Part shown: positions 13,992 to 62,951 of the stretch, one piece after another
Layout of the letters: every line of letters starts with the position of its first letter
Numbering within the stretch: the stretch's first letter is position 1
Assembly (NCBI GenBank): GCA_019058365.1
Contig: JAHPZE010000010.1
Coordinates: 62,761-126,760, forward strand
Reading direction: 5' to 3'
Origin: Promethearchaeota archaeon
GTDB lineage: Archaea > Asgardarchaeota > Lokiarchaeia > Sigyniarchaeales > SOKP01
DNA: 64,000 nucleotides
Notes under the pieces: model-generated
What the model was told of the DNA's origin: nothing
Seen by the model: the letters and a program-made list of their open reading frames with translations, nothing else
The model's database searches: none
Translations under genes and position numbers: made by a program

Positions 13992-14183
13992 ATTTCCTTA
14001 TGAAATTATAATATACATCATATTTTTTATTCTCTTAGGGATTCTAATTATTTTCTATACAAAATTTAAAAAATAGGAAAAAAATTTTGGTCATAAAAAA
14101 ATAATTCAAGGTATTAAGAAAAGATGGAAATCATTGAAAATTACACTTTCAATAAAATTTTAAAATTAAATCTTTATGGACAT
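13992..14183 (+). repeat. Diverged third copy of the 43993-44304 / 48037-48351 repeat
   Basis: Shares tttcctt.tgaaatt..atata..atattt, agggatt.taatt.ttttctatacaaaatttaaaaaata and ttaagaaaa.atggaaa. Confidence 0.75.
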
Positions 14184-42754: not shown

Positions 42755-43660
42755 ATGACAGTAAATTATAAGGAAATATGTAAAAATATATTTTCTGAAA
42801 CAGAATTTATTGAAAATTCATTACTAGGAATTGGAGTTATTCAAGATGGTAGCATCATTTATGCAAATAACACAGTTCTAAAACATTTTGGATATTCTTT
42901 TGATGATATTCAAGAAAAAAATTTCTGGATGAAGGTAATACATCCTAATGATTTACCTATAGTTAAAAGAAAAATTGAATTTAAACTAAAAGAGAAGATA
43001 TACAACACAACAAGATATAAATGTCGAATTCTATTAAAATCAGGTGAATCCAAATGGATTGAAGTGTTTTCAAAAAATTTTTATCACAATGATAGAATAG
43101 CAATCCTATTCACCATTATCGAAATTCCTGAACCAACTCCTTTAATTGAAATTTCTACAATTGATATGGCAAAGCTTAATGTAATGGAAGAATTATTAAA
43201 AAGATTTAAAATCGCATATCGTATTTTAAAAACAGGAGATTTCCAAAAGGATTTAGAAGAGAAGTTATTAAAAGAAAAAATTGCTTTTAAAGATGCAGAC
43301 CAAAAGTTCAACCACTTGTTTGAAACATCTCCATCTTCAATTATATTACTCAATTTTGAAGGAAGAATAATTGAATGTAACTGTACAACTGAAAATTTAT
43401 TTAATTATAAAAAAGACGAGTTAATTGGAAAAAAGTTTCTCGAATTTATCAATTTCCCACCTAATTCCCTTTCTATACTTGAAGATGTGTATGAACACCT
43501 AACAAAAGGAGAAAAATTATTACCCATTGAAACTCAGTGCTTTACAAAAGAAGGGAGAACAATTTGGGTTAAATTGTCTAACACATTAGTCAGGTTGTAT
43601 AATGAAATATTAATTCAAGTTATAATTCAAGATATTACTCAAATAAAATTAAATAAATAA
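42755..43660 (+). CDS. Tandem PAS-PAS protein without kinase output
   Basis: FGYS and IHPND; LFETSP, LFNYKKDELIGK and IQDIT. Confidence 0.85.
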   Translation: MTVNYKEICKNIFSETEFIENSLLGIGVIQDGSIIYANNTVLKHFGYSFDDIQEKNFWMKVIHPNDLPIVKRKIEFKLKEKIYNTTRYKCRILLKSGESKWIEVFSKNFYHNDRIAILFTIIEIPEPTPLIEISTIDMAKLNVMEELLKRFKIAYRILKTGDFQKDLEEKLLKEKIAFKDADQKFNHLFETSPSSIILLNFEGRIIECNCTTENLFNYKKDELIGKKFLEFINFPPNSLSILEDVYEHLTKGEKLLPIETQCFTKEGRTIWVKLSNTLVRLYNEILIQVIIQDITQIKLNK

Positions 43661-43992
43661 ATTTTGAGTCTCCCTTCTTTAGCTAGGTTGCCAAATTGTG
43701 ATAACATTTTAACAGATTCTTCTACTTTTTCAAAATTTGGAAAAAGAATAATAAAATGAACTTTTTTGATTTTTAAATTGTTTTTCCAAATAGCCTATGG
43801 ACAAAATCCCCATATTCTGTTTATTATATAATCTACAATTCATCAGACTTCATTACAGAAATAAATAATTCAATATCTATTTTACTCAATTTTACTCCCT
43901 CTTTAGATTTTCCTTCATATATATATAATATCTGCTATAAATAATAGAACATAATACTATAAAATTATTGCCTTTAACCAATATGGAAATTA

Positions 43993-44304
43993 TTCTACAG
44001 ATTGTATTCAGGTAAAAGTTGCATTTCCTCCTATATCAGAATCAGATGATAAGGATGATTATGTATTTCCTTTTGAAATTATGATATATATCATATTTTC
44101 CCTTTTTTAGGGATCTTAATTGTTTTCTATACAAAATTTAAAAAATAAGAAGAGAATATGGGCATTAACAAAAATTTTAAGTTATTAAGAAAAAATGGAA
44201 ACATAGAGAATATTAAAATAAAATTTTCATGGTCATTATCATTTATTTAGTGAATTTCATTATAAGTCAAAATGAACATATGATGCAATTTTTTAGCTCC
44301 TATA
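43993..44304 (+). repeat. Direct repeat, left flank of the SMC cassette
   Basis: Matches 48037-48351; last 103 bp (44202-44304) identical; includes the 3' end of a decayed TM-anchored surface-protein gene. Confidence 0.92.
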
Positions 44305-44326
44305 CCCGATATCTTAATTAGACAAT

Positions 44327-46231
44327 TCATAATTTATATTTCTTAATACTTGGAAGAGATATTATATTTATATCTTCTGAAGTTACATATTGGCGTGTGA
44401 GAGATTCTTCAAATGTTGTAATAATTAATTGACTTATTAACCCTTTTTTATGGATGTCGATTAAATAATTAATTATATTAATTCTATTCTCCAAATTGAG
44501 ATGTTCTAAAGGCTCATCTAAGATAAGAAAAGGTATTTTTGTATATTTCCTTAAAAGTAGAGTTTTTATTAGTATCATTAAAATCATTTTCTCACCAGCA
44601 CTCACATTTGTAAAAGGTATTTCGCTACTTGATTTTTTAAAATAAGGATAATATTTATTATCAATCGAAAGAATTCTCTCCTCATATGGAAAAAAAGCTT
44701 CCCAGATCTCTTGAATATCTATAATTAAATTGTTTAAATTAATATTCCTCTGGTTTTCTAAGACTTCATCTAGAGCATTTATTGTTATATCGCAAATAAG
44801 AGAACCTTTTATACTCTCCTTATACTTTTTCTCATATTTCAATGCATCTTTGACTTTTTCAGCAGCTTTATACTCTCTGAGAGATTGTTCAACATCCAAT
44901 AATTTCTGTTCTTTCTCATCTTGTTCTTTTCTGAGCACCATTACTCTCTGTTCTCCTAATTCTATTTTTTTATCTATTTCTTTTATTGAATTTCTGATTC
45001 TCTTTAGTCTATTTTCATCGATATTAGAAAGTATTTCTAATGAATTAAGCACTTCTTCAAGAGATTTGACTTTATTTTTTAATGATCTTAAATTAGTCTC
45101 TTTCTTTTGAATAGTCTCCTGATTATTTTGGATTTCTTCTTCTAATTTAGAAATCTCATTAACATTATCTTCATGAATTTTAATAAATTCATCTTTCCGC
45201 AAGGACTTTTTGCATAATGGGCAAAAAACCTTTATATCTACTTGAAAATTTATTTCCAACTTATTAATAATTTCTTTAATTTCATTTCTTTCAGCTAATT
45301 TAATATTATTCTGCATTTTCTGCTCTTTTAATTGTTGGATATTACTCTCGATTAATTCTATCTCATCAATAAATCCTTTATTTTTATTGCAGATTTGATT
45401 AATATTATTGATTAATTGTTGTAAATTTAACTGTTTAAATCCTATTTCTGAAAATAATTCTGTAGTTTGTTCATACAATTCTTTTATTTTCGAAGATGCT
45501 TTATTATAATCATAATTCTCACTAAAATCAATATCTTTAGTTTTTCTAAAATCTGATAACTCATGTTCCATTCTATTCTTTTCATTCCTAATAGAATCTA
45601 GCCTTTGCTTTAAAACCTCCCTTTTTTTCTCCAGTTCAAATTTATCTCCAATATCCTCCTTCAATTCAAATTTTTTAAGAGTTTCTATTAACTTTCTATT
45701 ATCATCTCGTTTATTATTAAAAATTTTTTTTAAATCTTTTATTAAATTTTTAAAGTCATTAATCTTACCAATCCCTATTAATTGTTCTAAATAATTTAAT
45801 AGTTGGTTTTGATTTAATTTAAGGAATTTATAAGTTTCACCTTCAGAAGAATATAGAATATTTTCAAGAAATACTTTATCTGAGTTAAAAATCTTTTCAA
45901 TAAACTCAAGAATCGAGTCTTCAGTTGTAAGTTCTATATCTTTTCCTACTAATTTTGATTTTGAGACTCCATTAAATTCTCTTGTAATCTGATATTGGTT
46001 ATTATTTTGCTTGAAATTCAGAATTACTTTTGTTCCTTCAGGAGAATCAATATTGATGAACTCTTTTTTATCTTTAGTTCTAACACGTCCAATCAAACCA
46101 AATATTATTGCTTCCAATACAGCAGTTTTTCCAATTCCATTAAAACCTATAATAAAATTTACACCTTCTTTAAAAGTCAAGGGTAAATTAAAATGACATT
46201 TCCAATTTTTGAGAGTAATTTTATTTATCAA
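44327..46231 (-). CDS. Short Rad50/SbcC-like SMC ATPase
   Basis: Walker A GFNGIGKT, coiled coils with CPLC zinc hook, VSAGEK signature, LILDEP Walker B. Confidence 0.9.
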   Translation of the reverse strand: MINKITLKNWKCHFNLPLTFKEGVNFIIGFNGIGKTAVLEAIIFGLIGRVRTKDKKEFINIDSPEGTKVILNFKQNNNQYQITREFNGVSKSKLVGKDIELTTEDSILEFIEKIFNSDKVFLENILYSSEGETYKFLKLNQNQLLNYLEQLIGIGKINDFKNLIKDLKKIFNNKRDDNRKLIETLKKFELKEDIGDKFELEKKREVLKQRLDSIRNEKNRMEHELSDFRKTKDIDFSENYDYNKASSKIKELYEQTTELFSEIGFKQLNLQQLINNINQICNKNKGFIDEIELIESNIQQLKEQKMQNNIKLAERNEIKEIINKLEINFQVDIKVFCPLCKKSLRKDEFIKIHEDNVNEISKLEEEIQNNQETIQKKETNLRSLKNKVKSLEEVLNSLEILSNIDENRLKRIRNSIKEIDKKIELGEQRVMVLRKEQDEKEQKLLDVEQSLREYKAAEKVKDALKYEKKYKESIKGSLICDITINALDEVLENQRNINLNNLIIDIQEIWEAFFPYEERILSIDNKYYPYFKKSSSEIPFTNVSAGEKMILMILIKTLLLRKYTKIPFLILDEPLEHLNLENRINIINYLIDIHKKGLISQLIITTFEESLTRQYVTSEDINIISLPSIKKYKL

Positions 46232-46982
46232 GTTTTTCCTCTTTATATACTTTTAATTTCCTAATTATTTCATCTATATCTGTAATATCAATTTCTTCTT
46301 TCATATATTCATTAAAAAGAAAATAAACAGGTTTGATGTCTTCCTTAACCAACTTTTCCATGACTTCTTTTTTATCCCCACGAAATGATCTTGATTTGTA
46401 ATACATGAATTTATCTTTTAAGCTTTGATTAAAATCCTCTAGTATTTTAGGCTTCTCTATTTCTTTAATATCTTTAATTGGGGCTTTAATTACCTTAAAG
46501 AATCTTTCTCTTAATTCTACTTCATGTTTTATTATATCATTTAGAGGTTGACGCTCTTTTTGTACAGTCTTTAGGATTTCGTCATTGTCTTTATATAATT
46601 GTTCTTTCTCTAATTTAACTGCGTTTAATTGTCCATCATTCCATACAATTATAATTCCTAATTGAGAGGGATTCTCTAAAAAGATACTCTTATATTCCTC
46701 TAATTCTTCTACTGTTAAATTATTTTCTTCAGTATTGATAACAAAAAGTAGGAATTCCCTAGAATTAATCAATATTATAAAAGTAAATGGTAAAATTTTA
46801 AATGATTTAGAGAAATCTTGAGGAGGATTAACTTCTTTAACTTTTAAATTTTTATTTGATCTTAAGAAATCATCTAATTTTCTAAAAAAAATAATAAATT
46901 TATTCATTTCCTCATAATCATCTATGAAATATCCCTCTAAATTAATAAGCTCATCTGGATATTCCGAATCTTTTTCCCCCAT
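46221..46982 (-). CDS. Unknown protein translationally coupled to the SMC gene; possible degenerate restriction-endonuclease fold
   Basis: Overlaps both neighbours; PFTFIILINSREFLLFV..GIIIVW alpha/beta pattern. Confidence 0.5.
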   Translation of the reverse strand: MGEKDSEYPDELINLEGYFIDDYEEMNKFIIFFRKLDDFLRSNKNLKVKEVNPPQDFSKSFKILPFTFIILINSREFLLFVINTEENNLTVEELEEYKSIFLENPSQLGIIIVWNDGQLNAVKLEKEQLYKDNDEILKTVQKERQPLNDIIKHEVELRERFFKVIKAPIKDIKEIEKPKILEDFNQSLKDKFMYYKSRSFRGDKKEVMEKLVKEDIKPVYFLFNEYMKEEIDITDIDEIIRKLKVYKEEKLDK

Positions 46983-47886
46983 TATGCTTCAACCCTCTTT
47001 TTTCCATTTAAATCTTTTTCGCCTTTTACTTTAGGATATACTCTCTGAAGCCATTTATAGTGTGCCAGACATTTCTGAATTCTCATTCTTTCATTTCCAA
47101 TCTTAAGTTCTTTTTTAAATAAAAATTCATCAAATTCTTGGATTTTTTGAAATTTACAACATTTAAAAATAGTTGTCAGGTACGAGACAGCAGTGATAGG
47201 TATAATATTAAAATTGGTATACTTCATACAAGATAATTCAATCTCACCAATATCTTTTTGATAATTAATAAAATCATATAAACTAACATCATCTGTAACT
47301 AATAAAAACTTATGATCTGGATTTATTTTCATTCCTTCAAGTGCTAATAAAAATAATGAGAGATCTGGTTCTTCAATTTCCCTTTTTTTTTTTTTATTGT
47401 ATATTGATCAGCAATAACCTTTAATTCATCAAGTCTTTTTTTGTCAACAGAATTATAATTAAGATATTTTTTATACTCTGCTTTAATCTTATTCTTATTT
47501 TCAATAAGATAGCGTTTAGCAGTCTGATTCTCTAATTTTAATAAAAATTTTACCTTTTTATAAATAGTCTCGTTGAACTCTTTATCATATACTGATTTCG
47601 AACAAAAGAATTTATCTCCTTCACAACATTCACAGACCATTTTTAATAGATGGCTGAAAATCTTAAAAAAATCTTTAAAATCGAGTTGCTTTTTTAAATT
47701 AGTGCAAAAATTCAAAAAATTAATTAGGAAATTGGAATCACATATAGTATATCTTTTATTTTCACATTTCTCATTAACTCTATCACAAAAACTCATAAAA
47801 AGACTCTGATTCTTATCTTTATTATAAAATTTCTTCTCTATAAAGATTAATGTATAATTTTTATTTAAATTTAGACTATTCTGCAT
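46982..47886 (-). CDS. PIN-like nuclease split by a frameshift in an A13 run (47383-47395)
   Basis: ICDSNFL, VYDKEF; the -1 frame gives EIEEPDLSLFLLALE..LLVTDD, completing the PIN acidic residues. Confidence 0.65.
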
Positions 47887-48036
47887 TGCACATCCCTTGG
47901 CTTCTTGGTTACTTTTATATCATTTAAAGACATAGAGTAGTACAATTTTATAGAAAATATTAGAATCTTAAATAATTTTTTATTAAATATTGAAAAACCA
48001 TGTAAAATGTATTTTAAGACTTTATTGAATCCTTAT

Positions 48037-48351
48037 TTCTACAGACTGCATTCAAGTAAAAGTTACATTTCCTCATATATCAGAATTAAAAGATAAGGAA
48101 GATAATGTATTCCCTTATTGAAATTGTGATATATATAATATTTTTCGCTCTTTCAGGGATTGTAATTGTTTTCTATGCAAAACTTAAAAAATAAGAAGAG
48201 AATATGGGCATTAACAAAAATTTTAAGATATTAAGAAAAAATGGAAATCATAGAGAATATTAAAATAAAATTTTCATGGTCATTATCATTTATTTAGTGA
48301 ATTTCATTATAAGTCAAAATGAACATATGATGCAATTTTTTAGCTCCTATA
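48037..48351 (+). repeat. Direct repeat, right flank of the SMC cassette
   Basis: See 43993-44304; similarity ends abruptly after TAGCTCCTATA. Confidence 0.92.
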
Positions 48352-48397: not shown

Positions 48398-48892
48398 ATG
48401 ACTGAACAAACTAGCCTCGATGAAATTTCCGAATTAGATTTTGAAATCATAAAGAAATTAAGTATAGATGGAAGAATCTCGCATAGACAACTTGCTAAAG
48501 ATTTGGGTAATAAATCCCCTGTAACAATTAAAAATCACGTTGAGAATTTGGAAAATCTGGGTATTATCATAAATTATGGAGCCAAGATTAATTATGAAAA
48601 GTTAGGGTATGGAATCATGGGTATTATCGAAGTAACAATTTCTAAAGGAAAAATGTTTGAAGTAGAAGAAAAGATCGCTGAGAATCCTAACGTTTTTGGG
48701 GTTTATGATATTACAGGAACTTATGATGCCCTCATATTAGCAAGATTTAAAACACGAGAAGAACTAAGTAAAATGATAAAAGAAATTCATAAATCTCCTA
48801 ATGTAGAGCGTACTAATACCCATTTTGTATTAAATACCATTAAAGAGGCTAGTTCTTTTGTCACTTTAATAGAAAAAGGTGAAACGAAATAA
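48398..48892 (+). CDS. Lrp/AsnC family regulator
   Basis: LDFEII..DGRIS..LA HTH; VYDITGTYD RAM domain. Confidence 0.92.
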   Translation: MTEQTSLDEISELDFEIIKKLSIDGRISHRQLAKDLGNKSPVTIKNHVENLENLGIIINYGAKINYEKLGYGIMGIIEVTISKGKMFEVEEKIAENPNVFGVYDITGTYDALILARFKTREELSKMIKEIHKSPNVERTNTHFVLNTIKEASSFVTLIEKGETK

Positions 48893-62777: not shown

Positions 62778-62951
62778 AGAAAATCTAACTTTAATTTGTT
62801 TATATAGGTATAATGATGAATGCTTTTTAGCTTTTTGAAATTTTAATATTTAGATGATGGCTCAGTCTTCCTCAATTTTATCACAGTGGAATCATTTTAA
62901 AAATATTTTTCATCATAGCCAATATCGATCTGCTATTATATATATAAACAA

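Follow-up and report, generated by a model that had tools for sequence, protein, structure and literature searches.

A Lamassu-like cassette of a PIN-domain protein, a protein with a predicted PD-(D/E)xK fold and a Rad50-like ATPase in an Asgard archaeon

The immune systems known as Lamassu, ABC-3C or DdmABC consist of an effector (LmuA), a middle component (LmuC) and an ATPase that resembles SMC (structural maintenance of chromosomes) proteins (LmuB). In the usual layout, an effector made of an enzyme and a docking domain is followed by a small middle subunit and by a Rad50-related ATPase of about 600 residues, which often has a CxxC hook (PMC10586767; PMC12663957). Nine effector domains are listed for Lamassu, and PIN is not one of them (PMC12663957). 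In a survey of RefSeq, just seven archaeal genomes had Lamassu, and these all belonged to Euryarchaeota or Thaumarchaeota (PMC12663957). Lamassu is not known to have been reported from Asgard archaea. These systems are the closest known kind to the cassette that we describe here, which lies on the minus strand of a 64,000-nucleotide stretch of DNA (hereafter the window) from a Promethearchaeota archaeon (GenBank assembly GCA_019058365.1, contig JAHPZE010000010.1, positions 62,761 to 126,760), that is, on contig C24 of a 4.74-Mb genome with 29.5% GC. The cassette is composed of a gene for a PIN nuclease (A), a middle gene (B) and a gene for a Rad50-like protein (the ATPase, called SMC in the table below).

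We propose, with a probability of about 0.55, that this cassette is a self-contained immune system of the Lamassu kind, which would sense nucleic acids and act by abortive infection. The defence role is suggested because the three-gene unit (the triad) is conserved, is patchily distributed, is present or absent as a discrete indel and is often found beside defence genes. An earlier analysis of the same DNA without database searches (the sequence-only reading) had stated that the cassette matches no recognised system. This is overstated: the layout is that of Lamassu/ABC-3C, and the ATPase weakly matches an LmuB model over its full length. The suggestion of an uncatalogued system fares better when the partners of the ATPase are considered, since PADLOC 2.0 has no model that matches A or B. 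Membership of Lamassu is therefore not established: the cassette is Lamassu-like, with partner proteins that lie outside the PADLOC models.

Conservation of the triad and the empty site

The triad is a conserved unit, as the sequence-only reading required of a genuine system: it is found in the same order in other genomes, in metagenome contigs and in bacterial metagenome-assembled genomes (MAGs). On the metagenome contigs (L006, L008–L013), the identity of the ATPase ranges from 80% down to 27%. An exhaustive profile search retrieved 100 clusters of A relatives, of about 260–300 residues, where a word-indexed protein search had recovered only two (A) and six (B) proteins. A full-length relative of A is present in five of the 399 other Asgard genomes, and all five carry the triad; the triad also adjoins a distant member of the A family, and occurs in two Anaerolineales MAGs (53% GC) and in another archaeal chromosome. 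No relative of the ATPase was found at E ≤ 1e-20 in 40 related genomes (24 of the same genus and 16 of the same order). In a Bathyarchaeota MAG, the triad (L063, 2359–5850) is broken, with A split into 123 and 175 residues and the ATPase in three frames.

The genome under study has a second copy of the triad, on contig C41. This copy is intact (277, 251 and 636 residues; the two ATPases are 43% identical) and is part of an island (L004, 1862–13447) that also encodes an HATPase_c_3 protein (734 residues), a C5 DNA methylase (432 residues), a DUF1802 protein and an MNT/HepT toxin–antitoxin pair. Elsewhere, the triad has as neighbours a prokaryotic Argonaute (Piwi), PglZ, Mrr_cat and PAPS reductase. 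Such is the pattern of an accessory module that moves horizontally and is frequently placed in defence islands; a patchy spread associated with defence islands is a feature of Lamassu too.

A protein of about 820–840 residues, with ParB_N and HTH_ParB domains, is encoded next to the triad and divergently from it in four independent contexts (Table 1), and is absent from the window and from the C41 copy. It could be an optional fourth part of the system, or a system of its own.

The cassette is a discrete indel, since a genome of the same genus (G230) has an empty site with one copy of the direct repeat that flanks the cassette on both sides in the window. In G230 (contig C707, locus L036), the Lrp/AsnC gene, one repeat and the left flank of the window are found in one continuous stretch: to the left of the single repeat is sequence that matches the flank of the left copy, and to its right is sequence that matches the flank of the right copy. 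Either the window carries a 4.05-kb insertion relative to G230, or G230 carries the corresponding deletion. The two repeats are nearly equidistant from the single copy of the congener (75% and 73%), and neither stands out as the native one. The limits of the cassette are also apparent from the comparison with an orthologous cassette of another genus (L046): the 83% nucleotide homology is confined to positions 44326–47949, a span that begins 63 nucleotides before the start of A and ends with the ATPase stop codon.

The direct repeats of about 310 bp that the sequence-only reading had described are real, and so is the short distance between the left one and the stop codon of the ATPase. They are identical at 291 of 315 positions (92%), with three indels; identity is 88.7% over the first 212 columns or so and complete over the last 103 bp. 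The same reading held that the cassette was recently acquired as a 4-kb unit: the presence of an insertion relative to the congener supports the second part of this statement, but the word "recently" is doubtful, as the repeats have diverged by 11% in their first two thirds. Their identical last third looks like the result of recent gene conversion, because this segment is barely alignable in G230.

Regarding the nature of the repeats, only two full copies exist in the whole 4.74-Mb genome, with a partial third copy in the window. Each consists of the 3′ end, in decayed form, of a gene for a surface protein, together with the sequence downstream, and is interrupted by stops and frameshifts; the recognisable remnants are the last strand of an FN3-like domain, an FP[FY]E motif (FPFE in the left copy), a hydrophobic transmembrane anchor and KFKK. 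The idea that the repeats are a multi-copy mobile element was rejected on both counts, their copy number and their origin from the 3′ ends of surface-protein genes. No tRNA or known RNA was found at the repeats, and no integrase, transposase, replication or transfer gene is present in or beside the cassette within the window. Remnants of tails that resemble sorting signals (FP[FY]E, hydrophobic helix, KFKK) are seen at three places, 44065–44160, 48110–48205 and 13992–14161 (the last being the partial repeat), which points to a surface-protein family that has a PEF-CTERM-like anchor and has left the 3′ ends of its genes dispersed as pieces of pseudogenes.

The order, the strand and the overlaps of the three genes are as the sequence-only reading had them, and its middle gene of 253 residues is present as claimed; on the contrary, the single PIN-like gene of about 300 residues is found as two frames. 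As in Lamassu, the order is effector, middle gene and ATPase, and the genes are translationally coupled: B and the ATPase gene overlap by 11 nucleotides, and A and B by one. A TATA-like element, ATATAAAA, can be read in the sequence about 30–37 nucleotides upstream of the ATG of gene A.

Table 1. Coordinates of the cassette, its flanks and the ParB_N genes found beside other copies of the triad (window positions unless another sequence is named)
Feature	Position	Strand	Remarks
PAS gene	42755–43660		Left-flank neighbour
Left direct repeat	43993–44304	+	312 bp; upstream flank continuous with the repeat in the G230 empty site (L036)
Junction, left repeat to SMC stop codon	44305–44326	.	22 nt; homology to the L046 cassette stops at 44326
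Rad50-like zinc-hook ABC ATPase (SMC)	44327–46231	-	634 aa, TTG start; stop codon 44327–44329
Middle gene B	46221–46982	-	253 aa
Gene A, 3′ part	46982–47332	-	116-aa frame
Gene A, 5′ part	47344–47886	-	180-aa frame
A13 run, frame-shift point of gene A	47383–47395	-	T run on the + strand
Cassette promoter region	47887–47949	-	Common to the orthologous cassette L046
Right direct repeat	48037–48351	+	315 bp; downstream flank joined directly to the one repeat of the empty site
Lrp/AsnC gene	48398–48892		Right flank, with its promoter; continuous with the repeat in the empty site
ParB_N gene, L009	3524–5995		
ParB_N gene, L010	201–2672		
ParB_N gene, L011	3328–5850		
ParB_N gene, ENA 108-kb contig			

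Two other observations concern parts of the window outside the cassette. A stretch of about 140 nucleotides directly after the PAS gene (43657–43796) is 80–98% identical in most genomes of the genus, which often have several copies each; the source genome has a second copy on contig C35, and no intact reading frame of matching size is open in the window copy. At 62857–62921 on the minus strand, a borderline Rfam match to the C/D-box RNA SNORD36 (30.7 bits for a gathering score of 30, E 0.71) may correspond to an archaeal C/D small RNA or to chance.

The Rad50-like ATPase and the middle protein

The ATPase has a Walker A motif GFNGIGKT, the signature SAGEK, a Walker B motif LILDE, the sequence ITTF at the position of the His switch of Rad50 and, in the middle of the protein, as the sequence-only reading had claimed, a CPLC zinc hook (residues 337–340). 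In 17 relatives, C337, P338 and C340 of the hook are invariant, as are Walker A and Walker B. When the protein is aligned to Pyrococcus Rad50, SAGEK replaces SGGER in the signature, the Asp of the D-loop is an Asn, and the His switch is a Phe (ITTF vs VSH). ABC ATPases that lack the switch His bind ATP and hydrolyse it poorly. The changes of the His switch to Phe and of the D-loop Asp to Asn suggest that the protein could plausibly be a slow, switch-like ATPase sensor. In these altered motifs the protein resembles the ATPase of Lamassu, and a slow switch has likewise been proposed for LmuB (PMC10586767); Walker B, which is a canonical DE in the cassette, is a difference.

The best match of the ATPase profile among solved structures (PDB) is an archaeal Rad50 (2.6e-28), and, among the matches listed, which are to Rad50 and not to LmuB, no solved chain named LmuB comes as near to the head as archaeal Rad50 does. 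The best NCBIfam match is also Rad50 (1.1e-27), over the N-lobe only and with 96 bits, where the cut-off of this equivalog is 700. In PADLOC, the best match is LmuB (PDLC03859, 1.1e-18), with 65.7 bits over the full length, which is weak for a model of 611 positions; an Anaerolineales relative of the ATPase obtains 108 bits on the same model. The model of the archaea-specific SMC-related proteins (ASRP, NF045487) gives 69 bits, far from its cut-off of 300.

The cassette has two features in common with Mre11–Rad50 and SbcCD: a coiled-coil ABC ATPase with a zinc hook, and a partner, the product of the gene just upstream, which is predicted to bind the base of the coiled coil via helices. Unlike these complexes, it has no adjacent Mre11/SbcD phosphoesterase (neither A nor B has a Metallophos match), it has lost the His switch, it includes an additional PIN gene and its coiled coil falls about 270 residues short of that of the genome's own Rad50. 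The latter is a 900-residue protein with a Rad50_zn_hook domain, encoded together with a Metallophos (Mre11-like) gene on contig C30. The cassette ATPase is thus not the only Rad50 of the genome; the sequence-only reading had named the opposite case as fatal to its own proposal.

Another point of comparison is RloC, which combines a Rad50-like zinc-hook ATPase and a PrrC-type anticodon nuclease in one polypeptide and is not known to have a PIN domain or a middle component. The cassette would be similar in that a Rad50-like DNA sensor is coupled to an RNA-cutting output.

More distant relatives of the ATPase, of about 600 residues and with the sequence DEPLEHL, are encoded in about 70 bacterial loci (L054–L123, for example L065 1627–5791, L083, L095 and L117), mostly from Actinomycetota. 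These relatives are about 20% identical to the ATPase over the full length, and the best PADLOC match of the three that were scanned is mad3 (about 1e-21). They are preceded by two conserved genes (coding for 320 and 460 residues, for example) that have no Pfam or PADLOC match in the scanned loci. The actinobacterial relatives were not counted as the same system, their upstream genes being unrelated; the loci are possibly another uncharacterised three-gene family.

The middle protein, B, matches no family in Pfam, NCBIfam, PADLOC or the sequences of the PDB. Its model, whose confidence is moderate (pLDDT, the predicted local distance difference test, of 67.7), consists of an N-terminal domain with a PD-(D/E)xK fold (residues ~25–160), as in Holliday-junction resolvases, followed by a helical domain at the C-terminus (~157–250). 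B is apparently non-catalytic, because the positions of the PD…(D/E)xK motif read PF…ExL in the family, from which the catalytic PD and K residues are absent. B also differs from LmuC as described: no middle-component model of PADLOC or Pfam matches it and, as far as descriptions can be compared, short LmuC models are helix-turn-helix-like and long ones resemble the C-terminal domain of SbcD, whereas B is modelled with a PD-(D/E)xK fold and helices.

The predicted complex of B and the ATPase obtains a score of 0.65 (0.67, 0.65 and 0.65 in individual runs), the best control being at 0.00; in a benchmark, this mark was attained by 58 of 80 solved complexes and by 2 of 110 mismatched pairs, a calibration that is only approximate here, as custom alignments were supplied. 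At least 86% of the contacts are common to the runs, and the pLDDT of the partner is at least 72. In the model, helices 157–247 of B contact residues 156–171 and 469–515 of the ATPase, which form the two head-proximal strands of the coiled coil, and residues 561–615 of the head. The prediction thereby puts B at the place on the ATPase that Mre11 takes on Rad50. A position on the head-proximal coiled coil has also been proposed for the middle component of long Lamassu and for SbcCD; in the solved short Lamassu, it is at the apex.

The PIN protein and the state of its gene in the window

The predicted structure of A is confident (pLDDT 88, predicted template modelling score 0.84), with helices at 253–304 after the PIN core, and its best structural matches are VapC toxins; the profile of A has no significant match in the sequences of the PDB. 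In an alignment of 64 members of the family, D54, D179, D204 and C248 are invariant, and conservation is at least 90% at C38, C45, C91 and E107. The modelled fold and the conserved acidic residues at the ends of strands are those by which the PIN superfamily is recognised, and on this basis A is a PIN domain. The sequence-only reading had called it a PIN RNase; the fold and the acidic residues bear out the first word, and the RNase activity is inferred.

A shares with the VapC toxins the fold and the four acidic residues. However, it is twice as long as VapC, with insertions, a conserved set of cysteines (C38, C45, C91, C247/C248) and the C-terminal helices, there is no VapB-like antitoxin gene, and gene A invariably accompanies those of B and the ATPase. 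The succession of an N-terminal enzymatic domain and C-terminal helices is reminiscent of Lamassu effectors, an architecture that is analogous only. Unlike these effectors, A has no match to an ABC-3C C-terminal domain in Pfam, and no LmuA model of PADLOC matches any of the 64 members of the family (E ≤ 0.1).

In the window, the frames of 180 and 116 residues are the two halves of one gene A. They align end to end with intact proteins of 256–305 residues from related loci, and are 61% (5′ part) and 81% (3′ part) identical to the closest orthologue (L006). Replacing the 13 A of the homopolymer by 14 restores a frame of about 300 residues, colinear with an intact orthologue of 305 residues; in L006, the A run is interrupted at the position of the shift, and the reading frame is kept. 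The 5′ part carries the motif CxRxNxxCENKR, the first Asp (ICDSNF) and the second of the acidic residues. In the restored frame, DLSL, which is the third acidic motif, comes directly after the A13 run. The 3′ part carries VTDD, where the fourth acidic residue is found, together with the CC pair and the C-terminal helices. The frameshift occurs just before the third acidic residue; therefore neither half, taken alone, could be active as a PIN domain.

Various explanations of this split were considered. An alternative genetic code was rejected, since the reading frame changes between the two parts, at a homopolymer. A programmed frameshift is unlikely, given that an 83%-identical orthologue is in frame without the homopolymer. 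A general homopolymer error of the assembly is unlikely as well: of the 208 runs of at least nine A located inside long open frames in the genome, six shift the frame, and that of the window is one of the only two with at least 13. A single-read or assembly error may be the cause at this one position.

The window copy is probably inactive because the PIN gene is out of frame at the A13 run, or else it is expressed only after slippage. It may be that this copy is a decaying relic, whose effector is dead and whose other genes are drifting towards loss by recombination between the repeats, a reading that is compatible with an immune function of the family and which we consider rather unlikely. 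The frameshift, which precedes the third catalytic Asp and is absent from the orthologue, would fit such a decay, all the more as homopolymer frameshifts are rare in this assembly; the Bathyarchaeota copy is broken too, and the direct repeats could delete the cassette. On the contrary, B and the ATPase are intact in the window and 76–80% identical to their orthologues, and the possible single error mentioned above also speaks against a relic. Polymerases also slip by one base at such A runs during transcription. Some full-length A may thus be made, since the single-base slip in a run of 13 A is reversible and also occurs in transcription.

Proposed mechanism and competing explanations

The mechanism that we propose for the intact cassette is the following. 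The ATPase would dimerise via its CPxC zinc hook and survey DNA, the putative trigger being DNA ends, which are the default for a protein of the Rad50 type, or replication intermediates. The degenerate PD-(D/E)xK protein B would sit on the head-proximal coiled coil (the neck) and the head of the ATPase, like Mre11 on Rad50. The binding of a foreign DNA structure would change the state of the head and of the coiled coil, and this change would release or activate the PIN nuclease A, which is presumed to be held until then. A would then cut RNA or DNA, and so stop the infected cell or the invader. The analysis itself shows the conservation of the triad, its indel status, its patchy spread and its defence-gene neighbourhoods, the folds of A and B, the altered motifs of the ATPase and, as a model and not a measurement, the contact of B with the ATPase; the trigger, the substrate of A, the way in which A is held and released, and the defence role are inferred.

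We note several points that weigh against a defence function. Neither A nor B matches a defence family of PADLOC or Pfam. The neighbours of the cassette in the window, the PAS and Lrp/AsnC genes, are not defence genes. The PIN gene of the window is frameshifted, with a general assembly artefact an unlikely cause. Last, the score of the B–ATPase complex may partly reflect its likeness to solved Mre11–Rad50 complexes.

A more specific hypothesis, which we put forward tentatively and consider doubtful, is that the cassette is an independent Rad50-derived immune machine and not a descendant of bacterial SbcCD or Lamassu. In place of Mre11, a nuclease-dead Hjc-like protein would sit at the foot of the coiled coil of a mini-Rad50 whose hydrolysis is impaired, and would act as the gate of a PIN nuclease. 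If this independent origin were true, immunity would have recruited DNA-end sensing on at least two occasions, and the module would then have moved between archaea and bacteria.

Another hypothesis is that the triad encodes a host complex for DNA repair or processing, in which a Rad50 paralogue, an Hjc-like protein that binds branched DNA and a PIN/FEN-like nuclease act at breaks or stalled forks. The ATPase is indeed nearest to archaeal Rad50, B has the fold of Holliday-junction resolvases and is predicted at the place of Mre11, and PIN-like folds include flap nucleases. However, a repair function is hard to reconcile with a patchy spread across domains and hosts of very different GC content, with two diverged copies in one genome, with an empty site in a congener and with the defence genes that often adjoin the triad; in addition, the genome has a canonical Mre11–Rad50 pair, and B lacks the PD and K catalytic residues. 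We regard this hypothesis as unlikely. Least probable of all is an addiction module that stabilises a mobile element, in which B and the ATPase would restrain a VapC-like PIN toxin and the loss of the module would kill the cell: the structural matches of A to VapC, the behaviour of the cassette as a mobile indel and the large ParB_N genes found in four contexts would fit, but the window cassette has no integrase, replication or transfer gene in or beside it, a 634-residue zinc-hook ATPase is not a known feature of VapBC, and the gene that is broken is that of the toxin and not of the presumed antidote, the other two being intact.

Should the cassette prove functional in defence, SMC/Rad50-based immunity would gain a PIN effector and a middle subunit of a new kind, and would be extended to Asgard archaea. 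The cassette would then be a compact model for how a sensor of the Rad50 type is rewired from repair to immunity, and the pair of empty and occupied sites, together with the switched-off effector of the window, would illustrate how such cassettes are gained and silenced.

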